Assembly: GCA_964536205.1 (NCBI GenBank)
Contig: CAZHVT010000002.1
Span: forward strand, 1,982-65,981
Direction: 5' to 3'
Length of the DNA stretch: 64,000 nt
DNA from: an uncultured Gammaproteobacteria bacterium
GTDB lineage: Bacteria; Patescibacteriota; Patescibacteriia; Magasanikbacterales; GCA-002688135
Shown: piece by piece, positions 3,297 through 48,902 of the stretch
Layout of the letters: each line of letters opens with the position of its first letter
How positions within the stretch are numbered: position 1 is the first letter of the stretch
Notes under the pieces: model-generated
What the model was told of the DNA's origin: nothing
Database searches by the model: none
Seen by the model: only the letters and a program-made list of their open reading frames with translations
Program-made: the position numbers and the translations under genes

Positions 3297-3380
3297 GTTG
3301 TACGTTATACGTTCTACGATGTACGAATTTTATTAATCGCTTCGCGATTTTCGTGTGACGTAGAACGTATAACGTACAAC
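3297..3380. repeat. Perfect 22-bp inverted repeat (GTTGTACGTTATACGTTCTACG / CGTAGAACGTATAACGTACAAC) around a 40-nt core holding the palindrome AATCGCTTCGCGATT
   Basis: Read directly. The arms are built of TACGTT(A/C)-type heptamers. The same core palindrome recurs at 48815-48830. Confidence 0.6.
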
Positions 3381-3388
3381 GTTAATGT

Positions 3389-3462
3389 GCCAACGTAGCT
3401 CAGTTGGTTAGAGCGCATCCATGGTAAGGATGAGGTCAGCGGTTCAACTCCGCTCGTTGGCT
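3389..3462 (+). tRNA. tRNA-Thr (anticodon GGU)
   Basis: Manual cloverleaf: acceptor GCCAACG/CGTTGGC, D-arm GCTC..GAGC, anticodon loop ATGGTAA, T-loop TTCAACT. CCA is encoded at 3463-3465. Confidence 0.85.
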
Positions 3463-3580
3463 CCAGAACACCTTTTGGGTGTTTTTTGTTATACACAGTT
3501 TTCCACATTGTGTGTGGATGTATGTGTGGTAAAATGCGTCCTTAAGCAAATACTTAAACATTAATAAGTATCTCTATTAT

Positions 3581-4366
3581 ATGAATGACTATCATCAGAG
3601 TCAGCAGCCAAAGCGTGATAAAGATCTTTTCGATAAGATCGGATCAAAAAACTCTTTCTTTTTTGGATTGAGTTCAGGTGTCGCAGGATTTTTTGTGATC
3701 GGATTTTTTGTCCTTCTCGGAGTCTATATGACTGGCGGAGGAGGCGGAGGGGGTCGCACAGTTCAGGCAAACAAAAATCCAAGCGTAAATCCAACTCCAA
3801 CACAGCCAGCAAATCCTGGAGCAGGAGCGCCTGTCGATGTACAATTATCAGAAGATGACTGGGTGCGCGGAGATGAAAATGCAAAAATCTCCATTGTAGA
3901 ATTTTCAGATTATGATTGCCCATTCTGCTCACGTCATCACGAAACAATGAAGCAGATTCTTGATGAATATCCAGGAGATGTAAATTGGGTATATCGACAC
4001 TTCCCATTAGAACAATTGCATCCATTTGCAAAGAAAAAGTCAGAAGCAGCTGAATGTGTAGGGTCACTCGCAGGAGCAGATGCATTCTGGAAATTCACAG
4101 ATGCAATTTTTGAGGGTGATGAGGGCGGAACAGACGCAGAACTTGCAGCACTTGCAGCACAAGCAGGAGCAAATCAATCAAAATTCCAAACATGCTTAAC
4201 CAATGGAGATTTTACAGATGTTGTGGAAAATGACACGCAAAACGCACTTGCGGCCGGCGGATCAGGAACTCCATACAACGTAATCATTGCAGGGGATCAA
4301 ACAATCCCGGTAAATGGCGCAGTTCCATTCGAGCAGTTTAAGAGTATTATTGATTCACTGTTGTAG
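3581..4366 (+). CDS. DsbA/thioredoxin-fold thiol:disulfide oxidoreductase, membrane anchored
   Basis: N-terminal TM helix, a Gly-rich linker, and a CPFC active-site motif in a thioredoxin-like context (YDCPFCSRHH). Confidence 0.6.
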   Translation: MNDYHQSQQPKRDKDLFDKIGSKNSFFFGLSSGVAGFFVIGFFVLLGVYMTGGGGGGGRTVQANKNPSVNPTPTQPANPGAGAPVDVQLSEDDWVRGDENAKISIVEFSDYDCPFCSRHHETMKQILDEYPGDVNWVYRHFPLEQLHPFAKKKSEAAECVGSLAGADAFWKFTDAIFEGDEGGTDAELAALAAQAGANQSKFQTCLTNGDFTDVVENDTQNALAAGGSGTPYNVIIAGDQTIPVNGAVPFEQFKSIIDSLL

Positions 4367-4478
4367 AGGAAAGAAGCAAGAAGTAAGAATAAAGATGAGC
4401 CTCCAGTGGAGGCTCTTTTGTTTATTGACACTTTCGCAGTTGAAGATTATACTATTGGCACAATTGAATACAGTTCAT

Positions 4479-4560
4479 GGGTCGGTACCAAAGTGGTCAA
4501 CTGGGGCAGGCTGTAAACCTGCTGGCTTCGCCTTCGGGGGTTCGAACCCTCCCCGGCCCA
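4479..4560 (+). tRNA. tRNA-Tyr (anticodon GUA), class II with long variable arm
   Basis: Acceptor GGGTCGG/CCGGCCC, anticodon stem GCAGG/CCTGC with loop CTGTAAA, T-arm GGGGG-TTCGAAC-CCTCC. No CCA is encoded. Confidence 0.85.
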
Positions 4561-4574
4561 TACGAAATAGCCAT

Positions 4575-4592
4575 CCACTCGGGTGGTTTTTT
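4575..4592 (+). terminator. intrinsic terminator (CCACTCGGGTGG + T6)
   Basis: Hairpin followed by a T-run immediately after tRNA-Tyr. Confidence 0.5.
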
Positions 4593-4707
4593 CATACTTA
4601 ATTCTCACCCCCTCTTTCGGGCGTAGCCCTCGTACCTCGGGCCATCTCACTCGCTTCATTCGGATATGCAAAGCTATCGCTTTTCACATCACTCATTCCG
4701 CTCGCTC

Positions 4708-4728
4708 GTCCGAACCCTCCCCGGCCCA
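4708..4728 (+). repeat. Direct repeat of the 3-prime 21 nt of tRNA-Tyr (GTCCGAACCCTCCCCGGCCCA vs GTTCGAACCCTCCCCGGCCCA)
   Basis: 20 of 21 identity to 4540-4560. No complete tRNA can be folded around the second copy. Confidence 0.6.
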
Positions 4729-4772
4729 AATAAAAACCTCGTCTTGTGATGGACTTTTTATTTGGGTTTTTT
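4725..4772 (+). terminator. intrinsic terminator (CCCAAATAAAAA ... TTTTTATTTGGG + T6)
   Basis: 12-bp inverted repeat followed by a T-run. Confidence 0.5.
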
Positions 4773-4782
4773 GTTTGAGAGG

Positions 4783-4811
4783 TTGACAGGGTAATCAAAA
4801 AGACCTAGTAT
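4783..4811 (+). promoter_or_regulatory. sigma70-like promoter TTGACA-N17-TAGTAT for the VIT-vWA gene
   Basis: Consensus -35 and 17-nt spacing, about 45 nt upstream of the ATG. RBS AAAAGGAG. Confidence 0.45.
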
Positions 4812-4853
4812 ACAAACGGTTAATTCACAACAACAGAGCAAAAGGAGTGAGAA

Positions 4854-7208
4854 ATGACACAATCAGCTCTCGCAAGACGAATACAAGAACAAGTCGGACT
4901 GGCGATCGAACATCTGCCGCTACGATCAATGCATTTCGATGCAGAGGTTCGTGGGTTGCATGTTGGTGTACGTGTTACACAGACATTCAAAAACACACTC
5001 GACAATCCTGTGGAGGCGATTTACGTTTTTCCAATGGTTCCACAAGCTGCTGTGCTTGGTGCAAAACTGAAGATTGGAGACAAAACGATCGAATCAGAAT
5101 TGCGTAAGCGCGAAGATGCGCAAAAAGCATATGCTGAAGCTCGTGATGCTGGTCATCATGCGGCGATGGTAGGGCAGGAGCGTCCTAACATTTTCACTAT
5201 GTCTGTTGCAGGTGTTGAGCCTGGCGAGCAGATCAGTGTGGATATTCATTACATCGCGCCGGTCGACTGGCAAGATGGTGGTGGGCGCTTGCAGATTCCG
5301 CTTGTGGTTGCGCCGCACTTTGTGCCGGGGCATGCGACTGGAAAAACCGGTGGGGGATTTTCTATGGATACCGATGAGGTTCCTGATGCATCTCGCATTA
5401 CACCCAAATCGGTTCCAGAGGTGAGTTACAGCGCATCGCTTAAGTTGTCGCTGACTCCAGGATTCGAGGCTAAACTTGGATCTCCATCTCACAGCGCATT
5501 AGTTGTGTGTGACGTTGAACAGATTTGTGAAGGCGACACACGAATCATCGAACTCAACGATCTGCGTTGCGATCGCGATATCGTCATCACATACAAAACA
5601 CAAGATGAGCAGCCGACAATCGCGGTCGAGCGTCAGTCATTCATCACCACAAACGGCGAGACGGATGAACTTACGCTTCTGCAGATCTCCGCTGGATGCA
5701 TCGAAAATGAATCAGAACATCCTCTGGATGTCGCGCTTCTGCTCGACACATCCGGAAGTATGAGAGGTCAGAAAATTAACGGGTTGAAGAAGGTGGCAAA
5801 AAAGCTGCTTACTCGTTTAAGTACATTCAGTCGTCCAGTCCGAGTAACTATTCATCGATTCGCAAATTATTGTGAAGAGTTGTCTAAGTTAGCAGAGGTT
5901 GATGACTCACACTTTGATGTTATCGATCAGCTGGATGCCAGGGGTGGCACAAACGCAGGTCGTGCGATCACGGCAGTGATGGATGTCTTCAGGAGAGAAA
6001 ATAAGTATCATGAAAAATGCATTGTGTTGGTCTGCGATGGGCAGACGGATGACAGGCATTTCAAGGGTCTGGAGGGAGTTCGTATTCATTCTGTCGGAAT
6101 TGATAATGCGATTGACAACGCGACTCTCAAAGAATTTTCTGACATAACTGGAGGATCGTGCGAATGGATTCTGCCAGGCGAGGATTATGATGCAGCAGCT
6201 GCGCGAGTGGCTGGTATGGCATCTGGCCCTGTGCTGCGTGATCTGCAAATCCGTGGCTTGCCCGATAAGGCAAAAGTCGTGAATCTTGGTGATTGCTATC
6301 ATGCACAACCTCGCACGATCGGAATTCTCACTGCAGAGCCTATCGAAGGATGTGTTGTAGTTGGATGTGGTCCGGATGACACGCTATACGAGCGAGCAGT
6401 CCGTGTACCAAAAGAGACAACGACAACTCTCGTAGGTCCGCTATTTGGCAAGATGTTGCTGAACGAGCTTCAGGATCAATCTGTCAAAACTGAAACATCA
6501 CTTCGTTATGGCGTTCTGTGCAGTTCAACTGCGCTCATCGCTGTAAGTAAGAAAGATGTTCCGGGCGCAAAACCGGAAACCATCGACATTCCAGTTCTCA
6601 TGCCACATGGGTGGGAGTATGACGATCGTAGTGAGTTCGCGGTTCGTCGAATGTCAGTTGGTGTTGGTGGTCCAGCTCGCAGACGTAGAATTAGAAGATT
6701 GAGTGCTCAAGGCATTACGAGAAGAGCTATTGCGGGAGATGTTTTGAGCAAAGTATCCTATAGGACAGAAAATGCTGGCCCTCCGCGTCATGCAACCATG
6801 CAAGGCGCAAAGGAAGTCGATACTATCGATTACTCCGATATGTTGGGTGGCGGTTTGCTGGAAGATTCGGCAGGGATTTCAGCTGATGCGGATTCGAAGA
6901 AAGAAAAAGGAACTGCTGGATATTTCATCGAGCAAGCACTAATTCTTCTCAACGCGCTAGAGAATCGTCCGACATCAAAGCCTCTTCATGCACTCCATCA
7001 AGAACTCAAGATGCTAATTGCAGATTCTACGAAGTTCGCTCAATGGAGTGGTGAAGAGAAATCCCAACTCCTTCTGCTGATCGCGCAAATCGGACATGCG
7101 AATCCAGCCTATGCAATCAAGCCCAACGAGGTGTTGTTGCAAGAGCCAGCCGGACAATTCGCTCGACTCCATTGGATGCAGGCCAAGAAAATTCTCGGTC
7201 TCGCATAA
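4854..7208 (+). CDS. VIT (vault/inter-alpha-trypsin) domain + von Willebrand factor A domain protein
   Basis: N-terminal VIT-like region (EAIYVFPMVPQAAVLGAKLKIGDKTIESEL...). vWA MIDAS motif DVALLLDTSGSMRGQK. GC clearly higher than flanking genes. Confidence 0.75.
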   Translation: MTQSALARRIQEQVGLAIEHLPLRSMHFDAEVRGLHVGVRVTQTFKNTLDNPVEAIYVFPMVPQAAVLGAKLKIGDKTIESELRKREDAQKAYAEARDAGHHAAMVGQERPNIFTMSVAGVEPGEQISVDIHYIAPVDWQDGGGRLQIPLVVAPHFVPGHATGKTGGGFSMDTDEVPDASRITPKSVPEVSYSASLKLSLTPGFEAKLGSPSHSALVVCDVEQICEGDTRIIELNDLRCDRDIVITYKTQDEQPTIAVERQSFITTNGETDELTLLQISAGCIENESEHPLDVALLLDTSGSMRGQKINGLKKVAKKLLTRLSTFSRPVRVTIHRFANYCEELSKLAEVDDSHFDVIDQLDARGGTNAGRAITAVMDVFRRENKYHEKCIVLVCDGQTDDRHFKGLEGVRIHSVGIDNAIDNATLKEFSDITGGSCEWILPGEDYDAAAARVAGMASGPVLRDLQIRGLPDKAKVVNLGDCYHAQPRTIGILTAEPIEGCVVVGCGPDDTLYERAVRVPKETTTTLVGPLFGKMLLNELQDQSVKTETSLRYGVLCSSTALIAVSKKDVPGAKPETIDIPVLMPHGWEYDDRSEFAVRRMSVGVGGPARRRRIRRLSAQGITRRAIAGDVLSKVSYRTENAGPPRHATMQGAKEVDTIDYSDMLGGGLLEDSAGISADADSKKEKGTAGYFIEQALILLNALENRPTSKPLHALHQELKMLIADSTKFAQWSGEEKSQLLLLIAQIGHANPAYAIKPNEVLLQEPAGQFARLHWMQAKKILGLA

Positions 7209-7214
7209 GGGCAT

Positions 7215-7247
7215 AAGCTCTTCGACTACGGTCGGAGAGCTTTTTTT
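7215..7247 (+). terminator. intrinsic terminator
   Basis: AAGCTCTTCGAC-TACG-GTCGGAGAGCTT hairpin followed by T7. Confidence 0.55.
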
Positions 7248-7261
7248 GTTATAATCAGAGC

Positions 7262-8578
7262 ATGAAAAGTATAGAGTTACATATTGATAAGGCTCGAGTC
7301 GATGAGGGTATTCTCGGAAATGCAGAGCGAGAGTTAGGCGAATACATAAACCACTGCAATTCTGTTGTAAAAAATCAGAATTACAATGAAGACGAAGCAT
7401 CGCTCAACTGTCCATCAGATCAAAAAGTACACATAGCTGTATCAGATATGGTCGTGCAAAAAGTCTCAAGCAAATTGAGATATATTGTGGTGTGTGGAAT
7501 TGGCGGTTCAAATTTGGGGACAAAAGCAATCTACGAATCAATAATTGGCACAGTGGATCCACATGCAGATTCGCATCCAAAAATCATTTTTGTTGATACA
7601 GTTTCAGCACAAGTGATGACCGATGTAATCACATTACTCAAAGAGAGGGTTGTACATGCTGATGAAGTTCTCATAAACGTCGTCACAAAATCCGGCGGCA
7701 CAACAGAAACAATCGGAAATTTCGAAACACTGTATAATGCATTATCAGAAAGATTCCAAAACCTAAAAGACAGAGTAGTCGTAACAACAGATGAAGGAAG
7801 TAAATTATGGGATGCAGCTGGTGAAGTCGGAATTGCTCGACTCGCAATTCAGAAAAAAGTTGGAGGAAGATTTTCAGTATTCACGCCAGTAGGATTATTT
7901 CCATTACAATGCGCAGGATTAGACGTAAAAGATGTGTTGAATGGAGCGGCAGATATGAGAGATGAATGTTTGAAGGGTGATGCACAATCAAATCCAGCTC
8001 TTGCATCCGCAGCAATCACCGCACATCATCACCGCCACGGAATCCACGTTAATAATACATTTTTATTTAACACAGAATTGGAATCAGTAGGTAAGTGGTA
8101 CAGACAACTCACAGGAGAATCAATCGGCAAACGCGAAAATCTCGATGGAGAAGAAGCTCACGAGGGTATCACGCCCATCGTTTCAATCGGCTCAACAGAT
8201 CTACATTCAATGGCGCAATTATTTTACGGAGGACCTCACGACAAGCTCACAACTCTCGTCTATGCAAAACAAAGTCCAGCAGAAGTTAAAGTTCCGCAAG
8301 ATTTAGTATTTCCAGGATTAGTAGATGACATTACCGGCAAGAGTTACAAAGAAATTATGCAGGCAATTTATGGCGGTGTGAAGAAAGCATACGAAAAAAA
8401 CGGCCTGCCATACATGGAAATTCTGATTCCTGAAATCAGTGAATATACGGTCGGGCAATTCCTGCAATTCAAAATGTGCGAGATGATGTATCTTGCACAA
8501 CTTCTCAATGTGAATGCATTTAATCAGCCTGCAGTGGAGGATTATAAGTCGGAAACACGGGAGTTATTAAAGAGTTGA
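7262..8578 (+). CDS. pgi: glucose-6-phosphate isomerase
   Basis: Motifs CGIGGSNLG and GGRFSVFTPVGL. Length about 440 aa. Confidence 0.8.
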   Translation: MKSIELHIDKARVDEGILGNAERELGEYINHCNSVVKNQNYNEDEASLNCPSDQKVHIAVSDMVVQKVSSKLRYIVVCGIGGSNLGTKAIYESIIGTVDPHADSHPKIIFVDTVSAQVMTDVITLLKERVVHADEVLINVVTKSGGTTETIGNFETLYNALSERFQNLKDRVVVTTDEGSKLWDAAGEVGIARLAIQKKVGGRFSVFTPVGLFPLQCAGLDVKDVLNGAADMRDECLKGDAQSNPALASAAITAHHHRHGIHVNNTFLFNTELESVGKWYRQLTGESIGKRENLDGEEAHEGITPIVSIGSTDLHSMAQLFYGGPHDKLTTLVYAKQSPAEVKVPQDLVFPGLVDDITGKSYKEIMQAIYGGVKKAYEKNGLPYMEILIPEISEYTVGQFLQFKMCEMMYLAQLLNVNAFNQPAVEDYKSETRELLKS

Positions 8579-8631
8579 CGAAAAGTTTAGAAAAACATAT
8601 ACTGTGGCAGTATAAATTACTGCTATCATAA

Positions 8632-8705
8632 GCCGTCTTAGCTCAGTTGGTCAGAGCAACTGTTTTGTAAACAGTAGGTCCGCGGTTCGAATCCGCGAGA
8701 CGGCT
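8632..8705 (+). tRNA. tRNA-Thr (anticodon UGU)
   Basis: Acceptor GCCGTCT/AGACGGC, anticodon loop TTTGTAA, T-loop TTCGAAT. CCA encoded at 8706-8708. Confidence 0.85.
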
Positions 8706-8740
8706 CCATCAATTGAACGTGATAGTAGATAACGATAAGT

Positions 8741-9813: not shown

Positions 9814-9822
9814 AAGAAACAT

Positions 9823-9893: not shown

Positions 9894-9900
9894 TATCAGA

Positions 9901-12059: not shown

Positions 12060-13538
12060 ATGCGTAAAACAATGGAATATGTCGATATTGTCGGCAAGCG
12101 ACATGAAGTAAGGTGGAGCGAGTTATTGGAGGCAATTGAGCGCGTTCGTGCTTTGTTCTCTTCCGTGAAAAGGCGTTTTGTTGAAAGAGAGTCGGTCATT
12201 GATCAAATCAAACATGCCATGCTGTTGCGTGAGCATATTTTGATCAACGGACCATCTGGCGCAGCGAAGTCAATGTTGATTCGAGCGATTACCAAGGCGA
12301 TTACCAATGCTCGATTGTGGTCAATGGACTTGACTCGTTTTACGACAAACAGTCAGGTGTTTGGTGGATACGATGCTCGTCAGCTTCGTGAAACGGGACA
12401 CTCTATTCATTTGACCGAGTTTTCAGCCGCCGATGCACACTTCATTCAATTGGGTGAATTTTTCGATGCGCCTCCGCCAACACTACGAACGCTTCTCGGG
12501 TTGCTCAACGAGCGACGCATTAGAAATGGTCCGCAGTTGATCGAGCCGCCGCTGTTGACGGCGATTGGCGATACAAACTTCTCAATGGAAATGCTGACCG
12601 AAAAAAGTCAGCAGCAGCTGGCCGCAGTAGTGGATCGCTTCCTGTTCAGGGAAGAGGTTGATTATGTGGTCGAGCCAGCAAATCGACGTCAGATGCTCGC
12701 GATGAGTTTGGATCCCCGGGTCCAAGACAAACTTCCACAAGTATCACTCGATGATATTGTGATGATTTCTGGAGTCGTGAAAGGAATGAATCTGATGCTC
12801 GATCCGTACATCATCGATGCATATGAGGAGATGACTCGTCGGTACAGCGCATTGCGTCAAGAGAAAGGCGGCTTGAGAGTTTCAGATCGGCGCTATGTAC
12901 GCGGTGCACAGATCATGGAAGTTTCCGCGTTATTGCATGGTCGACAGGCGGTTACATTTGAGGATTTGGCGATTACGCGCTATGTGCTCGCTCACAATGA
13001 AAATGATGTTGATATGCTCATCGAGATCAAGAAGGGTGTTATTGGCACATGGGTAAAACGCGCATCTCGTCGTGAAATTGAATCTGAACTACATCGTCTC
13101 GCACAGGTCATAAAAGATCTACCAAAGAGTGATAACGTTGATATTGAATCCATGAAGCTGGATGAACTGAAGGCATTTGCATCTCAATTAGAAAAGATGC
13201 AAAGCTCGCTTCAAGAATTCAAAACAGATTCGCTTGAGGTGGGGCAAAAAGTTGCCGAGTGGACACGGGCGATTCTAGCTTTGCAACATCAAGCCGTGCA
13301 TCACGGAATTTCACTCATCGAACAGATGATTCCAGAGACGACAACGAACATGAGTGCTGAAACTGTGGGACCGGTTGGAAAGCAGGTGAATATAGCGCTG
13401 AATGAGTTGCGTAGTGTTCCAACACTAAGTGATGACTTAATTGTTCGTCAGTCTGAAGTGATGGTAAAGGCGTTGCAAGCTCGACATAATGTAGATTCTT
13501 CGATGGAGAATCTCGGTGTTGTGAGTAAGGAGGGCTAG
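12060..13538 (+). CDS. MoxR-like AAA+ ATPase with C-terminal coiled-coil extension
   Basis: Walker A ILINGPSGAAKS, MoxR-type LLTAIGDTN (the ATQNP-equivalent) and sensor region RVSDRRYVRGAQIMEVSALLHGRQAVTFEDL. The translated sequence is GC-richer than the backbone. Confidence 0.65.
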   Translation: MRKTMEYVDIVGKRHEVRWSELLEAIERVRALFSSVKRRFVERESVIDQIKHAMLLREHILINGPSGAAKSMLIRAITKAITNARLWSMDLTRFTTNSQVFGGYDARQLRETGHSIHLTEFSAADAHFIQLGEFFDAPPPTLRTLLGLLNERRIRNGPQLIEPPLLTAIGDTNFSMEMLTEKSQQQLAAVVDRFLFREEVDYVVEPANRRQMLAMSLDPRVQDKLPQVSLDDIVMISGVVKGMNLMLDPYIIDAYEEMTRRYSALRQEKGGLRVSDRRYVRGAQIMEVSALLHGRQAVTFEDLAITRYVLAHNENDVDMLIEIKKGVIGTWVKRASRREIESELHRLAQVIKDLPKSDNVDIESMKLDELKAFASQLEKMQSSLQEFKTDSLEVGQKVAEWTRAILALQHQAVHHGISLIEQMIPETTTNMSAETVGPVGKQVNIALNELRSVPTLSDDLIVRQSEVMVKALQARHNVDSSMENLGVVSKEG

Positions 13539-20386: not shown

Positions 20387-20545
20387 CATGTAGTCACAAT
20401 TAAAGAGCTATCAAGAGTGTGGCGAGGGACAGGCCCTATGACCCACCGGCAACTTGCGTAAGCGTAGTGCCAATTCCTCCTCGAGAAATCGAGAAAGATA
20501 ATTATTTATGCAACGCCTTCCTGTGGGCGTTTTTATATTTTCAGT

Positions 20546-21604
20546 ATGATGTACAAACCATCAACCTACACCATCGAGAGTGTAACATCCGGACATCCGG
20601 ATAAAGTATGCGATCAGATTTCTGACGCAATTTTAGATGCATGTTTAGCACAAGATCCTTACAGTCGAGTTGCAGTCGAAACATTCGGCTCGCACGGGCT
20701 ATTAGTGTTGGGAGGAGAAGTATCAACATCCGCAATTGTAGATTACAAAACAATTGCAAAAAAAGTGTACAAAGAAATCGGATATGATGATGAACTGGAA
20801 ATCATCTGCCGTATAGTCGAGCAATCAAATGATATCGCACAGGGAGTAGACACAGGCGGCGCAGGCGATCAGGGAATTATGTATGGATATGCGACAAACG
20901 AAACAAGTCAGTTGCTTCCAAGTGCATTAGTGAAAGTTCATCAACTTACAGAAGGTTTAGAAAAGTTGCGCAAAATTGAAGCGTGTCCATGGCTTGGTCC
21001 GGATGGAAAAGCTCAAATCACCGTTGAAAATAATGTCATCACAAAAGTTCTCGTAAGCACGCAACATGATAAAGACGTATCGCAAGAACAAATCCATCGA
21101 GAATTAACAGAAAAATTAATTCACCCGATTGTGGGAGAAGTCGATGAAATTCTCATCAATCCAACAGGAATTTTCATTCAAGGAGGGTTTGAAGCAGACG
21201 CAGGATTAACGGGCAGAAAAATAATGGTCGATACATATGGCGGATTAGCTCCGCACGGCGGCGGAGCATTCTCCGGAAAAGATGCTACAAAAGTAGATCG
21301 ATCCGCAGCATATATGGCACGCTACGTCGCTAAACAATTAGTACATCGAGGATTAGGAAAAGAAGTTTTAGTTTCTGTTGCTTATGCTATCGGAAAAGTA
21401 GAGCCACTGATGGTGCAGGCTTACAATGAAAAAGGTGCGTCTTTAGATGTATCAGAATTCGATTTCAGGCCAGCGGCAATTATAGAAAATCTCGGACTCC
21501 GAAATCCAATATTCAGACAAACCGCATGCTACGGACACTTCGGGAAAAATGAATTGCCCTGGGAACATGTCGTACAGAAAAAGGTGTTGACGAAAGTTGC
21601 ATAA
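20546..21604 (+). CDS. metK: S-adenosylmethionine synthetase
   Basis: N-terminal GHPDKVCDQISDAILDA and the GGGAFSGKDATKVDRSAAYMARY signature. Confidence 0.85.
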   Translation: MMYKPSTYTIESVTSGHPDKVCDQISDAILDACLAQDPYSRVAVETFGSHGLLVLGGEVSTSAIVDYKTIAKKVYKEIGYDDELEIICRIVEQSNDIAQGVDTGGAGDQGIMYGYATNETSQLLPSALVKVHQLTEGLEKLRKIEACPWLGPDGKAQITVENNVITKVLVSTQHDKDVSQEQIHRELTEKLIHPIVGEVDEILINPTGIFIQGGFEADAGLTGRKIMVDTYGGLAPHGGGAFSGKDATKVDRSAAYMARYVAKQLVHRGLGKEVLVSVAYAIGKVEPLMVQAYNEKGASLDVSEFDFRPAAIIENLGLRNPIFRQTACYGHFGKNELPWEHVVQKKVLTKVA

Positions 21605-27534: not shown

Positions 27535-29424
27535 TTGAAAAATGAAGAAAAAAATGTTACGATACACTCACATATGAAATCACTCTACAAAGTTTCAGGA
27601 GTGATGGCGGTTGTGATATTACTCACAACGGTCGGTTTTTTTATTGGATTGCAAAATCCGGAGAAAACAGTGGTAGCAGAAACAAAAAAAGTAAGCAATA
27701 TCAAAGTTCAGACAGTCCAGGTAAAACGCTCTGTTTCAGATCGTCAACATAACTCCGCAAAGCAACCATCAGGATATTATCAGATGTTTTATGACCGCGC
27801 ATTGCCAACACCAAAAATCGATCAAGATATCCGTGTTGGAATCGTACCGCATCATCTATTAGTAGGTAGGTATATCGCATCTGCATTTAACGGAATGTCA
27901 TCCAAAAAAATAAAACGCGTAGTGCTCATAAGTCCAGATCATTTTGCGCGCGGAAAAACACGAGTTTCAGCTACGGTGCATCCATGGGAAACTCCATTTG
28001 GAAAATTATTGCCCGACACAAAATATATAGAATCGTTGGTGAATCATGCAGGAGTATATATCGATCCAGAACCATTTGATGGAGAACATGGAATCAGCGG
28101 GCTCGTACCATTTGTAAAAAAATCATTTCCGAACGCAAAAATAGTTCCAATTGTTGTGAGAGATGATTTATCAGAAGATGGGGAACAAAGACTTGCGCGA
28201 GCATTAGGAAATATTGATGATAAAACAATCATCATTGGATCATTCGATTTCTCACATTACGTTCCGCACAATGCAGCAGAATTTCATGACGCCACATCAC
28301 AAACAGTGTTAGAACTTCTCGATCATGAAACCGCGCGAAGATTAGATATCGATTCACAGCCAGGACTCGCAATTGTATTACGAGCAGCAAAACGACTCAA
28401 CGCACCACACTGGAATCAAGTATTGCATGCAAGTTCTGCGTCACTCAGTGAAAATCATGACACAAAAGAAAATACAAGTTACTTCGCGGGATATTTCACG
28501 AGCGGGCCAATTCCATGGCATGACAAAATCACCATGCATTTTTTCGGAGATATGATGTTTGATCGCGGCGTGCGCAATCTCATGGAAAAACATGGAAATG
28601 ATTATGTATTCCAAAATGTAGAACGTTTCATGATGGGATCAGATGTGGTTATCGGAAATTTGGAGGGTGCAATTACCACAAACAAATCAATAGCTGGAAA
28701 CCTCTCTCCACTATTATTTACATTCGATCCATCCGTCGCAGCGACAATGAAAAAATTCGGCATTACAGATGTAAGTTTGGCGAACAACCACTCAAGAAAT
28801 TTCGGACAAGATGGCCTCGATCAAACAAAACATTATTTAACAAAAGAAGGAATCAGATATTTCGGCGATCAAATCAACGAAGAGAATATTTCGTATTGGA
28901 CAGAAGTTCGTGGAACAAAAATCGGCTGGGTAGGATTTAGTGCATTTGGAGGAAAACAAAATGACGTGATTGATGAAATTCGAAGATTGCGAAACGAGGT
29001 AGATGTATTGGTCGTCATGCCGCACTGGGGAGCAGAATATAAATTAGTACATGGAAGATCACAAACTCGATTAGCTCATACGTTTATCGATTCTGGTGCT
29101 GACATGGTAATTGGAGCGCACCCACATGTCATCCAACCCATGGAAATCTACAAAGGAAAACCAATTTTCTATTCACTCGGAAATTTCGTGTTCGATCAAT
29201 ATTTTTCAAAAGATGTCACGGTAGGGTTAAGTGTTGGGGTTGAATGGGAACACAATAAAATGAAATTAAGATTATTTGTGTTACAAAACAATCAAGGAGA
29301 GATAGATCTTGCAACGCCAGAAAAACGTGATGAAATTTTAAAAAGAATATCAAAAACTTCGATTGTATCGCCTGAAGTTTCTACGCAAATTAGAAGTGGT
29401 GTGATACACTTAGAAAAAGAATAA
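27535..29424 (+). CDS. membrane-anchored fusion protein: Memo/AmmeMemoRadiSam-like N-domain + CapA (poly-gamma-glutamate synthesis, metallophosphatase) C-domain
   Basis: N-terminal TM helix. VGIVPHHLLVGR...LISPDHF resembles the Memo1 family. The C-terminus has CapA motifs (NHSRNFG, GAHPHVIQP, YSLGNFVFDQ). Confidence 0.55.
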   Translation: MKNEEKNVTIHSHMKSLYKVSGVMAVVILLTTVGFFIGLQNPEKTVVAETKKVSNIKVQTVQVKRSVSDRQHNSAKQPSGYYQMFYDRALPTPKIDQDIRVGIVPHHLLVGRYIASAFNGMSSKKIKRVVLISPDHFARGKTRVSATVHPWETPFGKLLPDTKYIESLVNHAGVYIDPEPFDGEHGISGLVPFVKKSFPNAKIVPIVVRDDLSEDGEQRLARALGNIDDKTIIIGSFDFSHYVPHNAAEFHDATSQTVLELLDHETARRLDIDSQPGLAIVLRAAKRLNAPHWNQVLHASSASLSENHDTKENTSYFAGYFTSGPIPWHDKITMHFFGDMMFDRGVRNLMEKHGNDYVFQNVERFMMGSDVVIGNLEGAITTNKSIAGNLSPLLFTFDPSVAATMKKFGITDVSLANNHSRNFGQDGLDQTKHYLTKEGIRYFGDQINEENISYWTEVRGTKIGWVGFSAFGGKQNDVIDEIRRLRNEVDVLVVMPHWGAEYKLVHGRSQTRLAHTFIDSGADMVIGAHPHVIQPMEIYKGKPIFYSLGNFVFDQYFSKDVTVGLSVGVEWEHNKMKLRLFVLQNNQGEIDLATPEKRDEILKRISKTSIVSPEVSTQIRSGVIHLEKE

Positions 29425-29461
29425 AGAATAAGAAGTAAGAAGTAAGAAGTAAGAATTTTAT

Positions 29462-32978: not shown

Positions 32979-33007
32979 TCATCAATGTGTCATGCGAGCT
33001 AGAGATT

Positions 33008-33073
33008 GTCATCCCGGCGTAGGCCGGGATCCACGTCTCTAGAAGCATGGATCCCGGCCTTCGCCGGGATGAC
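33008..33073. repeat. 70-bp-class palindromic repeat, copy A (GTCATCCCGGCGTAGGCCGGGATCCA-N14-TGGATCCCGGCCTTCGCCGGGATGAC)
   Basis: Read directly. Each arm contains an inner CCCGGC/GCCGGG hairpin. Confidence 0.7.
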
Positions 33074-33081
33074 ATTAAAAT

Positions 33082-35896: not shown

Positions 35897-36178
35897 ATGG
35901 CAAAGTTCACAAAGACGCAGATGCATCAAGCATTGGCAGATTTAATGGGAACAAGTAAGAAGGAAGCGGGAGAATTTTGGGAGAAGTTCGTAGAACTCAC
36001 ACTCGACCAAGTAAAGGGTGAGGGCGAAATGCCATTGCCAGGATTGGGCAAATTGGTAAAGGTTCACCGAAAGGCACGCATGGGTCGAAACCCAGCAACA
36101 GGAGAATCAATCCAAATCGCTGCAAAGACAGTTGTAAAATTCCGCGTAGCAAAAGCTGCAAAGGAAGCAGTTCTCTAA
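35897..36178 (+). CDS. hup: HU family DNA-binding protein
   Basis: 93 aa with HU signature (GFGKF-like LPGLGKLVKVHRKARMGRNPATGESIQIAAKTVVKF). Confidence 0.8.
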   Translation: MAKFTKTQMHQALADLMGTSKKEAGEFWEKFVELTLDQVKGEGEMPLPGLGKLVKVHRKARMGRNPATGESIQIAAKTVVKFRVAKAAKEAVL

Positions 36179-39799: not shown

Positions 39800-40085
39800 A
39801 GATAACTCGGCACTTAAAAACAAGGTCCAGTTGGTCTGGCCTGGGGGCGTCCCAGTGGAGGGTTCGAATCCCTTGATGCCTTGGCTGAGCGATAGGTTGG
39901 TCTGTGGGAGCCTAGGTGGGAGAAGCGACCACAGGGTTTTTCGCAATTCCATAAGACGCTTCGTATTGAGATACCACCCTTTCCATCCGAAATGGTTGAG
40001 GAATAAGACGATCCATAAGGGTGTCCCTCAATGTTCAATCGGCTCTGTGCACCCCTCACATCTACGGATGAGAGGGGGTTTTTAT
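39800..40085 (+). ncRNA. candidate structured non-coding RNA (identity unresolved), ending in an intrinsic terminator (40052-40085)
   Basis: About 290 nt with no credible ORF on either strand, and locally GC-rich. Contains a tRNA-like T-arm GAGGG-TTCGAAT-CCCTT (39857-39873) and several GGG/CCC helices. The terminator is CCCCTCACATC-TACG-GATGAGAGGGG + T5. Confidence 0.25.
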
Positions 40086-40100
40086 TTACACACATAAGTA

Positions 40101-40129
40101 TTGACAATAAATACGCTTTATTTTATACT
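40101..40129 (+). promoter_or_regulatory. sigma70-like promoter TTGACA-N17-TATACT of the hrcA operon
   Basis: Consensus spacing. Immediately followed by CIRCE. Confidence 0.5.
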
Positions 40130-40130
40130 C

Positions 40131-40157
40131 TTAGCACTCACATAGGGAGAGTGCTAA
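40131..40157 (+). promoter_or_regulatory. CIRCE operator (TTAGCACTC-N9-GAGTGCTAA), HrcA binding site
   Basis: Perfect match to the CIRCE consensus inverted repeat. Confidence 0.8.
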
Positions 40158-40265
40158 TCGACGCGAAGCGTCGTCCTGAGCATAATGTTAGTGGAGTCGA
40201 AGGATCCCGAGAGGATTTCTCACGAGATCCTTCGACTAAAACGCTCAGGATGACGTGGTTTCTAT

Positions 40266-41454: not shown

Positions 41455-41462
41455 CTAGAAGT

Positions 41463-41529
41463 GTTATTCCGTAGTCGTACGGAATCCATCTCGGGAAAAG
41501 GCATGGATCCCGTACGACTGCGGGATGAC
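41463..41529. repeat. palindromic repeat copy B, variant subfamily (GTTATTCCGTAGTCGTACGGAATCCA-N15-TGGATCCCGTACGACTGCGGGATGAC)
   Basis: Read directly. The right arm is the near-exact inverse of the arm inside grpE at 40965-40990. Confidence 0.6.
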
Positions 41530-41561
41530 AGTCTAACTAATCGCTAAACGCTAACAAATAT

Positions 41562-43457: not shown

Positions 43458-43512
43458 TCAGGATAGTGCATGAGTAACTTTCTTTAATCAAAGAAGGATA
43501 AGAAGTAAACAT

Positions 43513-43896: not shown

Positions 43897-43900
43897 TTCT

Positions 43901-44395: not shown

Positions 44396-44802
44396 TAAAT
44401 AAAGTGAAGTACATAATGATCCCAGTCACTCTAATCCTACTAGGACTCGGCTGCAATCCAATCGAGCAACGACCAGAAAAACCAATAGCAGAATCAGTCC
44501 CACAACAAGCCACGGAACAAGATGTAATAGGAGCATGGATCACACAAGAAGGATCGATATTCGAAGAAATCATCATTGAGGAAGACGGAAGATATTTCAC
44601 GTTCTTGCGTGAACTACCTCTTGATGAAGGAAAATGGTTTTGGAATGACGAAACATCACAGTTAAAATTGAGCTCAACATTCAATGAAAAACTCTCACTA
44701 AATTTTGTGGAGTTGGAAGTTGAGGAAGAAGCATTGTTTCTAACAGATACAGATGATGTGCAACACGTCTGGTGGGTCGTAGATGCCTCCCACGACGATT
44801 AA
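44392..44802 (+). CDS. putative lipoprotein (136 aa)
   Basis: Signal peptide with lipobox LLGLGC. Confidence 0.4.
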   Translation: MINKVKYIMIPVTLILLGLGCNPIEQRPEKPIAESVPQQATEQDVIGAWITQEGSIFEEIIIEEDGRYFTFLRELPLDEGKWFWNDETSQLKLSSTFNEKLSLNFVELEVEEEALFLTDTDDVQHVWWVVDASHDD

Positions 44803-44810
44803 TACAAGTT

Positions 44811-44877
44811 GTCATCCCGGCGCAGGCCGGGATCCATCTTGATAAAAGGTATGGATCCCGGCCTGCGCCGGGATGAC
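44811..44877. repeat. palindromic repeat copy C (GTCATCCCGGCGCAGGCCGGGATCCA-N15-TGGATCCCGGCCTGCGCCGGGATGAC), perfect
   Basis: Read directly. Sits between the lipoprotein gene and dnaJ. Confidence 0.75.
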
Positions 44878-44888
44878 AATAAGAATAT

Positions 44889-45944
44889 ATGAGTAAAGAT
44901 TACTACAAAACTCTCGGAGTCGAACGATCAGCAACTGCTGACGAGATTAAACGTGCCTTCAGAAAGCAAGCTCATGAGCATCATCCCGATAAGGGCGGAG
45001 ACGAAGCAAAATTCAAGGAAGTAAACGAAGCATATCAAGTATTATCCGACGACCAAAAAAGGGGACAATACGATCAATTCGGATCTGACTTTCAAAATGG
45101 AGGAGGCTTCGGAGGTTTCGGACAAGGCGGATTTTCAGGAGACTTTTCGCAATTCGCTGGCGGATTTGGAGATATTTTTTCAAGTTTCGGATTTGGCGGA
45201 GGAGGCAGAACAAGAACTGCACGCGGTCAGGATGTTGTCGTAGATTTAGAATTATCATTACACGATGTTGCGTTCGGAATTGAGCGAGAATTAAGTTTAC
45301 ATAAAAACGATCTCTGTGATGACTGTTTAGGAAGCGGTGCAAAAAAAGGAACAAATTTAAAAACATGTGCAGAGTGTCATGGAAAAGGACAAACCGTGCG
45401 TGTGCAGCAAACTATTCTCGGTGCAATGAAAGCGGCGCAAGTTTGCAATGAGTGCCAAGGACAAGGACAAAAGCCAGAACAAAATTGTAATACCTGTCGT
45501 GGAGAAGGGTCATACAAAAAAACAGGAAACTTCAATATAAAAATTCCAGCAGGAATTGACAATGGCGAACAAATCAGATTGCGTGGAAAAGGTGAGGCTG
45601 GACCGCGCGGTTCAGAAGCAGGGGATTTGTATGTTCGTGTGCGCGTGAAACCTCACAAGATTTTAACACGTCGCGGATTTGATATTTTCTCTCGGGTCAT
45701 GGTTCCATTTACTACGGCTACTTTAGGAGGAGAGGTTAATGTAGAAACAATCGACGGAGAAATCGGAGTCAAAATCCCAAACGGCACACAAGGCGGACAA
45801 ACCATCAGATTACAAGACAAAGGAATAAATCATCTCTCTGGAAACGCGCGCGGAGATCACTACATTGAAGTACAAATCGAAGTCCCCAAACGCCCGTCTC
45901 GAAAAGCAAAAAAACTCCTCAAAGAACTTGAAAACGAATTATAA
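44889..45944 (+). CDS. dnaJ: molecular chaperone DnaJ
   Basis: J-domain with HPD (YYKTLGV...HEHHPDKGG), a G/F region and four CxxCxGxG zinc-finger repeats. Confidence 0.85.
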
Positions 45945-46009
45945 GAAAAATAAAAAACTCGATGTGCGATCGGGTTTTTTATTTGGTCGTTTTCTAGTAT
46001 AATAAACAC

Positions 46010-46561
46010 ATGCCAAACATATCCGAAATCACAGAATTTCTATCCGGTGTAAACTGGAGCGAGCCGACATGGGATTTATTTGTCGCAGCTTTTTTTGTGT
46101 TAGCTGTTTTGTTGTATGGATTTTCAATGGGGAAATCAAGGCTCGTAGTGAACATGGTAGCGATCTATATCGCGATGGCAGTCGCACAAACTGTTCCAGA
46201 TTTAAGTGCGATCGGAAACAATCTGTCGCCACAAAACATGTTCACCGCTCAAGCAGTGGTATTCCTTATTGCTTTTGTTGGCCTCTACTATCTTCTCGCA
46301 AAAAAAAGCCCGCTCGGGCGAGTAGTACGAACATCACGAAAAGAGAAGTGGTCTCATGTCGCAGTGTATTCAGTTGTGCATGTTGGTTTGATTCTTTCAA
46401 CAATACTCTCATTCATTCCAGATGAAGAAGTCATGCCACTCTCACAAATCACACAAACAATCTTCACGCATGAAATCGCACACTTTCTCTGGGTCCTCGC
46501 ACCCATCATCATCATGATCCTCCTCCCCGAAAACATCCGTCGTTCAAATTACGACGATTAA
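46010..46561 (+). CDS. hypothetical membrane protein (CvpA-like guess)
   Basis: Four TM helices. Weak resemblance only. Confidence 0.35.
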   Translation: MPNISEITEFLSGVNWSEPTWDLFVAAFFVLAVLLYGFSMGKSRLVVNMVAIYIAMAVAQTVPDLSAIGNNLSPQNMFTAQAVVFLIAFVGLYYLLAKKSPLGRVVRTSRKEKWSHVAVYSVVHVGLILSTILSFIPDEEVMPLSQITQTIFTHEIAHFLWVLAPIIIMILLPENIRRSNYDD

Positions 46562-46594
46562 TTCAAGAAAACAATAAATCTAAAAAGCGAGAAA

Positions 46595-46619
46595 TCAAAA
46601 AACCGCATAGGCGGTTTTT
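46595..46619. terminator. bidirectional intrinsic terminator (AAAAAACCGC-ATAG-GCGGTTTTT) between convergent genes
   Basis: Read directly. Confidence 0.55.
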
Positions 46620-46626
46620 ATGGTTC

Positions 46627-47034
46627 CTACTTTCGATTATCTAGGGCCTTGTTGACCTCTGCATCAGCTTTTTTATTTTGCTCGCGCCGAACATGTTTGT
46701 ATGTGATGCGATCAAAACCAGTCGCGACATTCCAAACTTTCACAAAAATACTAGCCAGCTCATTATTCTTCACTTTATATTCTCGATTCATCTGCTTCAC
46801 GACTAATTCAGAATCTAGATAACAGGTGACTTCAGATGCGCCCATATCACGAACTTTCTCAACAGCAGCAAGCAATGCCAAATATTCCGCTTGGTTATTA
46901 GTCTTATGACCAATATATTTCCCAAACGATTCGATCACTTTTCGCTCTGCATCCATCACAACAACACCGATCGCCGCTGGTCCGGGGTTTCCACGAGCTC
47001 CTCCATCCGTATAGGTAATTAGTTTTTTACTCAT
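46627..47034 (-). CDS. rnhA: ribonuclease HI
   Basis: Motifs YTDGGARGNPGPAA ... AEYLALLAA ... DSELVV ... RREQNKKADAEV (the DEDD-type RNase H catalytic pattern). Confidence 0.8.
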   Translation of the reverse strand: MSKKLITYTDGGARGNPGPAAIGVVVMDAERKVIESFGKYIGHKTNNQAEYLALLAAVEKVRDMGASEVTCYLDSELVVKQMNREYKVKNNELASIFVKVWNVATGFDRITYKHVRREQNKKADAEVNKALDNRK

Positions 47035-47048
47035 AGTCTAATAGTATA

Positions 47049-48770
47049 CTATCTATGTGGACGCATGTCGATGAGGCTGCACTGGATTTCTTGTCTTCCG
47101 TTGTAGGAATTAATGCCAAGTCTATACACCACATCAACACGATCACCAAGGTTAAACTTTGTGACATATTCAGCCTTTCCAAAACCAACAAACTTCAACA
47201 TATTCCCATCATCATCAACAAGTTGCATAATAATAGTCGATCCAGAATTCCCAACAACTTGCGCATGAGCAACCTCAACATTTCGAGAGAGAAAAACAGG
47301 TTCCTCGTTTTTCATTCCATGAGGTTCAAGTTTTTGTAGATCGCGCACAAGCTCCCATGTAACATCACAAAATCGCAGCTCACAATCAACATGAAATTCA
47401 GGATCATCATGCACACCTTCCATCGCAGAAACAATCTTGACCAACTCCTCCTCAAAGTAGGGAAGCAGGCTTGGGTCTTTTAATGAAAATCCGCAAGCCT
47501 GCGGATGACCTCCATACTTTTCCAAATACTGTGAAGCAACATCGAGCGCACGAACGATATTTACATTGTTTACGCTCCTTCCAGAACCAACGACAGTTCC
47601 ATTTCGACTAGACATCACCAAAGCAGGTTTTTGATATGCATCTTTCAGTCTTCCGGCAATTAACCCGACTATTCCGCTGGGCCAATCATCATGATATGCA
47701 AACAAAATAGGGTTATCTCTCTGCGCCTCACTTTCAACTTGCTCCTTCGCTCTAGCAAGTGCAGATTTTGTAGATGTCTGTCGTCTGTTATTTATCGTTT
47801 TTATTTCCAACATCAAATCCTCTGCAACTTTCATGTCGTTCGCCCGAAGCAAATCAAAAGCAATGCGAGGATCTCCCATTCTTCCAGGAGCATTTATTTT
47901 CGGACCGATGCCAAATGAAAATGTTTTAGGTCCAAAATCATCATTACGACGATCCTTCAATAAGATCTCAAATCCTAGGCGAGAAGTACGGGCCAAACGT
48001 TCAATTCCATACTTTGCGATAATTCGAGACTCGCCAAGAAGAGGAACCATATCCGCAATTGTCGACATCGCAGCAACATCTAACATCGAATACAAAAAGT
48101 GCTCAACAGATTCAGGCGCAGGCTGACGATCTATGTTATGCGCATGCAACAATAATCCATGCGCAAATTTAAATGCCACGCCACCACCAGCCAAAGATTC
48201 ATCCGGATATGGCTCATCCGGAAGTTTCGGATGAAGTGTAGCATGTGCTGGAGGAAGGTTATCCTTAAATTGATGATGATCAGTTACAATCACATCAACA
48301 CTGTTATCCTGCAAATACTTCACCTCATCAATATTAGAAATTCCACAGTCAATACTAATCACAACCCCAGCCTTATCAGCTACAAATTTCTCTGCTGTGT
48401 GCATGCTCATGCCATATCCATCCTCATCACGATGCGGCAAAAATACATGAACTTCTGCTCCAAGTGCAACAAGGGTTTCAAGAAGAATAACAGAACCACC
48501 AATCCCATCAGCATCATAGTCCCCATGAATCATAATCAATTCCTTTTTCTCAATCGCTTTAAAAACACGCTCACAAGCTTTCGTCATATCAGAAAACAAA
48601 AAAGGATCATGCAGCTGATCCAAAGAAGGGGAGAGAAAAGCCGAAACATCAGAAACCTCACGTTGAGAAAGTAGATCCAAAACAACCCGATGAATATCAG
48701 GATGCGCGGAAATAAAATCTCCCGGCGCACCCTCCGATACACGCCATTTTTGGTTTTCAAATGAGGTCAT
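47049..48770 (-). CDS. recJ: single-stranded-DNA-specific exonuclease RecJ
   Basis: DHH family motifs (MIHGDYDADGI, DCGI, VIVTDHHQ) followed by a DHHA1 region (GGGH). Confidence 0.8.
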   Translation of the reverse strand: MTSFENQKWRVSEGAPGDFISAHPDIHRVVLDLLSQREVSDVSAFLSPSLDQLHDPFLFSDMTKACERVFKAIEKKELIMIHGDYDADGIGGSVILLETLVALGAEVHVFLPHRDEDGYGMSMHTAEKFVADKAGVVISIDCGISNIDEVKYLQDNSVDVIVTDHHQFKDNLPPAHATLHPKLPDEPYPDESLAGGGVAFKFAHGLLLHAHNIDRQPAPESVEHFLYSMLDVAAMSTIADMVPLLGESRIIAKYGIERLARTSRLGFEILLKDRRNDDFGPKTFSFGIGPKINAPGRMGDPRIAFDLLRANDMKVAEDLMLEIKTINNRRQTSTKSALARAKEQVESEAQRDNPILFAYHDDWPSGIVGLIAGRLKDAYQKPALVMSSRNGTVVGSGRSVNNVNIVRALDVASQYLEKYGGHPQACGFSLKDPSLLPYFEEELVKIVSAMEGVHDDPEFHVDCELRFCDVTWELVRDLQKLEPHGMKNEEPVFLSRNVEVAHAQVVGNSGSTIIMQLVDDDGNMLKFVGFGKAEYVTKFNLGDRVDVVYRLGINSYNGRQEIQCSLIDMRPHR

Positions 48771-48776
48771 GAAATT

Positions 48777-48902
48777 CGTAAAGCGTAACTCGTAATGCGT
48801 AACTCGGGAAATGTATCGCGAAGCGATAATTTATAGATCGTCGCCTTGCGACACTTTTTACGCTTTACGCTTTACGCTTTACGCTTTACGCATTACGAGT
48901 CA
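48777..48902. repeat. inverted heptamer-array element: (TAAAGCG/TAACTCG/TAATGCG/TAACTCG) ... core with ATCGCGAAGCGAT palindrome ... (CGCTTTA x4, CGCATTA, CGAGTCA)
   Basis: Read directly. Four perfect CGCTTTA tandem units at 48861-48888. The upstream array is the inverse complement. The core palindrome is shared with the element at 3297-3380. Confidence 0.6.

Follow-up and report, generated by a model that had tools for sequence, protein, structure and literature searches.

Two related heptamer-armed palindromes at a tRNA-Thr and a recJ junction in a Patescibacterium genome

Introduction

Simple sequence repeats (SSRs) with a unit of seven nucleotides are over-represented in bacteria, and inverted pairs of GGGAATC heptamer arrays have been described in Xanthomonas (Rehm et al. 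2015, PMC4692102). The Xanthomonas arrays have no known function, and their length varies between related species (PMC4692102). Heptamer direct repeats of the TAACTGA type are found in Beggiatoaceae, cyanobacteria and Bacteroidetes, and a post-transcriptional role has been proposed, not proven, for such intergenic repeats (PMC4679880). In Nostoc, heptamer repeats lie near recF/recO (bioRxiv 10.1101/2022.06.06.494920). Here, we describe two hairpin-forming palindromes with heptamer arms, locus 1 (3297-3380) and locus 2 (48773-48907), in a stretch of 64,000 nt from a Patescibacterium (contig CAZHVT010000002.1). This whole stretch is referred to as the window, and positions are counted from its first letter.

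Like the Xanthomonas pairs, both loci consist of intergenic 7-nt arrays that are convergent on opposite strands and capable of forming a stem-loop or cruciform. Their units, however, are AT-rich and of the TACG/CGTA type, lack G-tracts and allow no G-quadruplex, and a conserved mini-hairpin stands in the centre, with a strict 7-nt phase running across it. In addition, the Xanthomonas repeats mostly keep their position from one species to the next, whereas loci 1 and 2 are absent in relatives. With the TAACTGA and Nostoc repeats the two loci share tandem 7-nt arrays placed in a short intergenic region or 5' leader, frequently with a start codon a few nucleotides away. Those repeats comprise 169 direct sets against one indirect set and have one genome-wide unit, while the arrays described here are inverted and form hairpins, and their unit varies. 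In 2008, Elhai reportedly also treated SDR elements within heptamer repeats.

The central mini-hairpin has a described counterpart of its own. The motif d(GCGNAGC) forms the extraordinarily stable DNA mini-hairpin that Hirao and co-workers described, and hairpins with a 5-bp stem and a GAA loop are found at single-stranded DNA priming sites and at the promoters of the phage N4 virion RNA polymerase (reviewed in PMC13037366). The core of both loci contains GCGAAGC exactly and has the same 5-bp stem and GAA loop, but here the motif sits in a much longer palindrome, and the likeness to the priming and N4 sites is in sequence format alone.

The two loci share a core and a seven-nucleotide register

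The 13-mer ATCGCTTCGCGAT occurs exactly twice in the window, at 3336-3348 on the plus strand and at 48815-48827 on the minus strand. No match to it was found in 100 dinucleotide-preserving shuffles, and chance does not account for the core common to both loci. Within the 64 kb, runs of at least three TACG or CGTA spaced 7 nt apart were found at loci 1 and 2 only; the expectation under a first-order Markov model is 0. When the two loci were aligned locally, with ATTAATCGCTTCGCGAT against ATT-ATCGCTTCGCGAT, the score exceeded that of 1000 out of 1000 shuffles. Each locus can be read in a single unbroken 7-nt register, in which a CpG recurs every 7 nt, and in this phased reading the inverted arms are 28 nt (four units) apart in both. 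Loci 1 and 2 are therefore related by a common core, by TACG/CGTA 7-mers and by a 7-nt phase.

What they have in common is the centre and not the arms. The heptad sequences differ between the loci and the polarity of the arms is opposite, as the TACG units of locus 1 point towards the core and those of locus 2 away from it. The UUC/TTC version of the core lies on the sense strand of the flanking genes at both loci; GCGAAGC, which matches the definition of the d(GCGNAGC) motif, lies on the minus strand of locus 1 and the plus strand of locus 2. Taking at least three contiguous 7-nt units as an SSR, locus 2 has four copies of TACGCTT with three variants, and locus 1 has four TACGnnn and four to five CGTnnnA units. 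Two convergent arrays of the same unit within approximately 100 nt are present in both loci.

These results agree in large part with an earlier, sequence-only reading of this DNA, which had described the arms of locus 1 as a 22-bp perfect inverted repeat around a 40-nt core, locus 2 as an upstream array with an inverse downstream array, and the 13-nt palindrome as common to both and unlikely to be so by chance. The unit at locus 1 is TACGTTn/CGTAnAA and not CGTAA, though, and of the CGTAA/TTACG-type 7-mers said to build both loci only TACG/CGTA is common to them.

The features of locus 1 and its surroundings are as follows.

3297-3380: locus 1, a palindromic element of 84 nt (inverted repeat I6), readable as 12 in-phase G-N5-C heptamers
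3297-3328, plus strand: left arm, GTTG followed by TACGTTA TACGTTC TACGATG TACGAAT
3336-3348, plus strand: core mini-hairpin ATCGC-TTC-GCGAT, with GCGAAGC on the complement
3352-3386, plus strand: right arm, CGTGTGA CGTAGAA CGTATAA CGTACAA CGTTAAT
2405-3295, plus strand: gene for a TPR-repeat protein, its stop codon 1 nt before locus 1
3389-3465, plus strand: tRNA-Thr(GGT), starting 8 nt past the end of locus 1

Locus 1 lies at the junction of the TPR gene and the tRNA-Thr gene, both on the plus strand, and thus just upstream of the tRNA as had been claimed; the tRNA has its own terminator-like hairpin at 3465-3485. The segment GTTGTACGTTATACGTTCTACG (3297-3318) is fully complementary to CGTAGAACGTATAACGTACAAC (3359-3380), which gives 22 perfect base pairs, and the 40 nt between them contain AATCGCTTCGCGATT. 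At 87% complementarity the arms reach 31 nt (inverted repeat I6). Written in sevens, the first half reads GTTGTAC GTTATAC GTTCTAC GATGTAC GAATTTT ATTAATC and the second half GCTTCGC GATTTTC GTGTGAC GTAGAAC GTATAAC GTACAAC. A CpG stands at each heptamer junction, and the GCTTCGC of the core takes up exactly one slot (3339-3345). As RNA, the plus strand is predicted to fold with -47.6 kcal/mol (z = -7.7) and the minus strand with -44.0 kcal/mol (z = -8.6); the DNA folds of the two strands give -31.7 and -31.1 kcal/mol.

The corresponding features of locus 2 are listed below.

48773-48907: locus 2, an imperfect palindrome of approximately 135 nt (inverted repeats I1, I5 and I10), with a single 7-nt register through both arms
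48777-48804, plus strand: left array, CGTAAAG CGTAACT CGTAATG CGTAACT
48815-48827, minus strand (recJ-sense): core ATCGCTTCGCGAT, which reads ATCGCGAAGCGAT on the plus strand
48840-48852, plus strand: second mini-hairpin GTCGCCTTGCGAC (GTCGC-CTT-GCGAC), the mirror partner of the core in the large palindrome
48859-48907, plus strand: right array, TACGCTT four times, then TACGCAT, TACGAGT and CACGAAA
47049-48770, minus strand: recJ; 2 nt separate its ATG from the base of the hairpin of locus 2, and the predicted fold has the ATG base-paired
48911-49030, minus strand: open reading frame (ORF) for a 39-aa membrane protein (MMTKKQKKIFKIIFVTISTVALVG...), directly upstream of recJ in relatives too

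Locus 2 is placed between two tightly linked co-directional genes on the minus strand, the 39-aa ORF, which ends at 48911, and recJ, which starts at 48770; the claim that it lies upstream of recJ is thus borne out. Between its left and right arrays stands TATCGCGAAGCGATAA. The predicted RNA fold of one strand has -53.6 kcal/mol (z = -5.5), that of the recJ-sense strand -60.5 kcal/mol (z = -7.8), and the DNA folds of the two strands have -32.8 and -34.1 kcal/mol. The hairpins predicted for either strand of each locus are very stable. The locus is base for base the same in assemblies from ENA, JGI and Logan (L001, L002 and L384), indicating that it is not an assembly artefact.

In all, approximately 74 kb of sequence were examined, namely the window and 10 kb extra of the scaffold (SUTE22-1 scaffold_9). 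No further copies of the element were found in the extra 10 kb.

Both sites are empty in relatives

Homologues of RecJ and of the TPR protein place the organism in the Patescibacteria, near Candidatus Magasanikbacteria. We compared the lengths of the spacers between orthologous flanking genes in relatives that have the same gene order at each locus.

Spacer between the small ORF and recJ, 140 nt here:
L126 (RecJ 74% identity): 2 nt
L123/L124 (RecJ 72%): 39 nt, with an unrelated 8-bp hairpin
L125 (RecJ 57%): 19 nt

Spacer between the TPR stop codon and tRNA-Thr, 93 nt here:
L129-131 (TPR 86%): 24 nt
L132 (TPR 63%): 11 nt
L133 (TPR 67%): 15 nt

Neither a period-7 CGTA/TACG array nor the core was found in the orthologous loci of the relatives at either site. 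Because relatives with the same gene order have short spacers that lack both arrays and core, the two elements are, to judge from this comparison, recent lineage-specific additions of approximately 85 and 135 nt and not conserved regulatory sites.

Core hairpins beside heptamer arrays in other genomes

A genome collection was scanned for CGCTTCGCG followed, after a gap of 5-35 nt, by four ACG at period 7. At least 117 loci were found, against approximately 8 chance matches expected in a naive calculation. Among the matches listed, approximately 100 are genuine heptamer arrays beside a CGCTTCGCG hairpin, and in 10 of these approximately 100 the hairpin is flanked on both sides by arrays of one unit in inverted orientation, as in loci 1 and 2. 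The matches listed come from Chloroflexota, Verrucomicrobiota, Planctomycetota, Acidobacteriota, Acidimicrobiia, Gemmatimonadota, Kiritimatiellae, Firmicutes and Chlamydiota and from one Patescibacterium. The same kind of scan in a metagenome collection that does not include the window's own contig, with the exact core and phased ACG, gave 10 matches, approximately 4 of them with real arrays. Across IMG/VR, only four loci with inverted TACG/CGTA heptamer hairpins were found, none of which has the core; with so few in the entire database, two such hairpins within 64 kb are notable.

Individual matches come close to locus 1. An element in a metagenome-assembled genome of the Acidimicrobiia (L277), situated between convergent metX and ABC-2 genes in a locus of 62% GC, aligns to locus 1 over its full length (GTTnTACGTTnTACGTTnTACG...CGAA...CGCTTCGCGA...CACGTAnAACGTAnAACGTAnAACGT). 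In the Patescibacterium (L308), TTCGCTTCGCGAA is followed by CGTCGAA CGTGTAA CGTCAAA CGTATAA, with a start codon 10 nt downstream, and this stretch aligns to the right half of locus 1. On the reverse strand of the same sequence, at 4570-4740, we also noted arrays of CGTCCNA (four units) and CGTACAn (two to three units), each followed by AGGAwTTTGACwyTTTTATATT, which may be a promoter-like element.

Dispersed copies were seen as well. L275 carries two 114-nt composites of heptamers and mini-hairpin that are 95% identical, inverted and flank 1.2 kb. We considered this pair as an insertion sequence (IS) and rejected it, as the interior encodes Maf and a thioesterase and no transposase. L264 and L285 have near-identical dispersed copies of such composite units. 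By sequence reading, CGCTTCGCG with heptamer arrays also appears adjacent to, or approximately 100 nt from, a tRNA gene in L353 and L143, which together with locus 1 makes three cases, a number too small for a test.

Other features of the window

A different class of repeats in the window consists of five REPIN-like doublets, each made of TTGTCATCCCGGCGCAGGCCGGGATCCAT, a spacer of 13-20 nt and an inverted copy.

33007-33074: REPIN-like doublet
41462-41530: REPIN-like doublet
44809-44879: REPIN-like doublet
53884-53954: REPIN-like doublet
57457-57534: REPIN-like doublet

Near the last of these, strains L381 and L382, which are 99.93% identical, appear to differ by an indel of approximately 14 nt. 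The QMITE of Coxiella was considered in connection with this class and dropped because the organism is a Patescibacterium.

Upstream of hrcA-grpE-dnaK, a perfect CIRCE operator is found at 40127-40155 (TTAGCACTC-N9-GAGTGCTAA). Directly after it, within 40157-40256, stands a mini-hairpin CGACGC-GAA-GCGTCG with a GCGAAGC core, followed by a palindrome of approximately 95 nt of the GTCATCCTGAGC...GAAGGATC type; this type of motif was also seen beside the core hairpin in a viral contig (L186). Approximately 290 nt at 39800-40090 are non-coding and structured-looking, with a tRNA-like GGTTCGAATCC arm and a terminator-like hairpin at the end. ARAGORN and Rfam made no call on this segment, which may be a divergent transfer-messenger RNA or another RNA gene. 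A S-adenosylmethionine (SAM) riboswitch (RF00162, 67 bits) lies at 20405-20504, upstream of the S-adenosylmethionine synthetase gene (20546-21604).

In the region from tRNA-Thr/Tyr to EF-Tu, a gene for a VIT+vWA protein follows tRNA-Tyr, where L129 has a different gene of 219 aa. Near it is a MoxR (bpMoxR) AAA+ gene of the MoxR-vWA-beta-propeller type.

4854-7208: VIT+vWA region
12060-13538: MoxR region

Discussion

The pair of loci is real and unusual and represents a variant of the intergenic heptamer repeats. We favour, with moderate confidence, the view that loci 1 and 2 are copies of one small non-coding, SSR-armed palindromic repeat element that was recently gained. They are best read as related to the intergenic heptamer repeats and, by their behaviour, as also near REP/MITE-like DNA, and are probably neutral or selfish. 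The element would be a hairpin-forming palindrome, with arms of TACG/CGTA heptanucleotide repeats nucleated by ATCGC-TTC-GCGAT, the complement of which holds d(GCGAAGC). A segment containing the core would have been copied between sites without leaving a target-site duplication. The arms would then have lengthened and diverged through slipped-strand mispairing in 7-nt steps, while template switching from arm to arm across the stable hairpin would maintain their complementarity.

That DNA was copied into both positions is suggested by the core and flanks, which are exactly shared, together with the empty sites in relatives. This would preserve the recombination site of the sequence-only reading in a loose sense only, as a place where DNA was copied or inserted. 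Later growth by 7-nt slippage, with correction between the arms, is suggested by the conserved centre, the divergent yet self-complementary arms and the strict register. Arm-to-arm template switching would account both for a conserved core with differing arms and for the 22 perfect base pairs of locus 1. The window holds a third heptamer SSR at 29414-29460, with approximately four GAAGTAA units and degenerate GAATAAA units, which indicates that 7-nt slippage operates in this genome. This array ends 2 nt before the ATG (29462) of a 690-aa ORF that has no Pfam match, an arrangement like that of the TAACTGA-type arrays ahead of start codons.

Several observations weigh against this explanation. 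The copies seen are two in approximately 74 kb of the genome, and no transposase, integrase or RAYT-like gene that could serve the copying was found in the approximately 74 kb annotated. No target-site duplication was recognised when the element boundaries were compared by eye with the empty sites. The spacers of the relatives are highly diverged, so that the elements could also have grown in situ from a small ancestral hairpin, and L123 has its 8-bp hairpin at the very site of locus 2. Locus 2 shows no length variation among the three assemblies, which possibly represent one population, and strain L382 does not cover the loci. Slippage and template switching, moreover, are steps that we infer and did not observe. 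The wider distribution gives further points of this kind. In viral contigs chosen for TACG arrays, GCTTCGC/GCGAAGC was near 2 of 180 arrays against 3.6 expected; for arrays in genome loci that had not triggered the match, the core was near 5 of 44 against 2.1 expected; and the phase between core and array was uniform across the matches.

Unselected occurrences of the core in viral contigs abutted a heptamer array once in 125 cases (L186), which is not significant. The matched genome loci are extremely rich in arrays (approximately 55 per Mb) and the 9-mer CGCTTCGCG is common in GC-rich DNA, so that much of the excess could be co-occurrence. A general association of core and array is weak, and we claim no general law, because the controls give at most an approximately 2-fold enrichment and the phase is uniform. 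For a subset of loci, a real link is argued for by arrays that begin within 10 nt of the hairpin (38 of 75 cases) and by the recurring inverted architecture like that of locus 1.

The nearest competing explanation is a non-autonomous mobile element, similar to a miniature inverted-repeat transposable element (MITE) or to a REPIN, a doublet of repetitive extragenic palindromes (REPs), and mobilised in trans by an enzyme whose gene lies in another part of the genome. We regard this as possible but unlikely. A candidate enzyme would be an HUH/Y1 single-strand transposase that recognises the mini-hairpin, with the heptamer arms as subterminal binding or guide repeats. Hairpin-dependent single-strand transposition without target-site duplication is established for IS200/IS605 and for REPs with their REP-associated tyrosine transposases (RAYTs). 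The absence of a duplication here fits such a process, as do the exact conservation of the core at sites that are empty in relatives, the exceptional stability of d(GCGAAGC) as a hairpin in single-stranded DNA (PMC13037366), the dispersed composite copies with 95% identity in other genomes, and the GC content of the L277 element, which is far below the 62% of its host locus (approximately 42%, an estimate read from the sequence). REPs, REPINs, bacterial interspersed mosaic elements (BIMEs) and MITEs are, like the two loci, small non-coding intergenic palindromes with stable hairpins that are present or absent between relatives. However, the terminal inverted repeats expected to be conserved among MITE copies are here the arms, which differ between the copies and have opposite polarity; the pattern of a MITE is thus reversed, with only the centre in common, and no target-site duplication was seen at either locus. 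A REP or REPIN would be a GC-rich imperfect palindrome of 20-40 nt with a GTAG/CGTC head and a high copy number, whereas the loci lack such a head or any conserved tag of that type and are known in two copies in 74 kb, a stretch in which no transposase, RAYT, IS or integrase was identified. An RNA-level cis element, for instance an RNase III processing site or a stabiliser at the junction of the upstream mRNA with the tRNA, or a translational uncoupler or regulator of recJ, is in our view quite doubtful. Both loci do lie inside co-directional transcription units with the UUC core on the sense strand, locus 1 offers a perfect duplex of 22 bp, and the recJ AUG is paired in the predicted stem of locus 2. 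The L308 array and the third array of the window are 2-10 nt upstream of start codons, and the post-transcriptional proposal has been published (PMC4679880); in a variant of this idea, which follows a suggestion made for the TAACTGA arrays, a multimeric RNA-binding protein could attach to the 7-nt repeats. On the other hand, the elements are absent from relatives that have the same genes, their unit sequences differ between the loci, and control of translation is inapplicable where the target is a tRNA.

The iteron-like, protein-binding function suggested by the sequence-only reading fares worse, and we consider heptad arrays bound as duplex DNA, either as iterons or as an operator or centromere of the omega type for a ribbon-helix-helix (RHH) protein, very unlikely. 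The omega sites of pSM19035 consist of 7-bp units that adjoin one another, both in direct and in inverted orientation. That geometry fits the arrays, which are unique within the window. Omega sites, though, have one conserved consensus, WATCACW, and lie at promoters beside their cognate genes, just as iterons would have one unit consensus at a promoter or origin, while the two loci stand between co-directional genes, differ from each other in heptad sequence and polarity, and have no counterparts at the orthologous sites of relatives. Neither locus has a gene for an RHH protein, ParA/ParB or Rep, or any replication or partition gene, next to it in the approximately 74 kb annotated. The gene for HU (35897-36178), which had been named as a nearby candidate, is not meaningfully nearby, as its distance is 12.6 kb to locus 2 and 32 kb to locus 1. 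Furthermore, arbitrary heptamers stand side by side within single elements of other genomes, L275 among them, which points to a periodic mutational process rather than to binding specificity. It is highly improbable that the loci are ordinary intrinsic terminators, resemble each other by chance or arose in the assembly. The hairpins are strong, contain GC and are intergenic, and a terminator-like call was obtained for GTCGCCTTGCGAC with ACTTTTT, antisense to recJ only. But both hairpins lack a T-run behind them in the direction of their flanking genes, locus 1 precedes a co-directional tRNA, and scans for terminators and promoters in the sense direction gave no call at either element, in line with the earlier statement that these are not simple terminators. 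The shuffles without a single copy of the core speak against chance, and the three independent assemblies with the same locus 2 against an artefact. Rfam 15 returned no family at the gathering score for either locus, only matches to generic miRNA-precursor hairpins far below the threshold.

Returning to a copied, SSR-armed palindrome, we also considered whether the two loci belong to a cross-phylum class. This would consist of tiny self-propagating palindromes in which a GCTTCGC/GCGAAGC mini-hairpin nucleates heptamer arms. Single-strand hairpin transposition or template switching would spread them without a target-site duplication, and they would continue to grow in 7-nt steps. Such a class is a speculative proposal and rather unlikely. 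If it were true, the likeness of the L277 and L308 elements to locus 1 would mean either horizontal spread or a general hairpin-driven mechanism that generates repeats.

An effect of the elements in cis would likely be that of a very stable hairpin, either in single-stranded DNA or in the transcript, where it would stand in the leader of tRNA-Thr and, as an intercistronic structure, bury the start codon of recJ. Heptamers are an over-represented yet unexplained size class of bacterial microsatellites, and loci 1 and 2 provide a clean case, in which the gain is dated because the sites are empty in relatives. Their strict 7-nt phase, palindromic symmetry and ultra-stable nucleus make hypotheses on the origin and movement of such repeats, including stalling, slippage and template switching, testable. 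They also show that streamlined genomes of the candidate phyla radiation (CPR) tolerate hairpin insertions of 85-135 nt in tight operon junctions, beside a tRNA and before recJ, where such insertions may affect RNA processing or translation.

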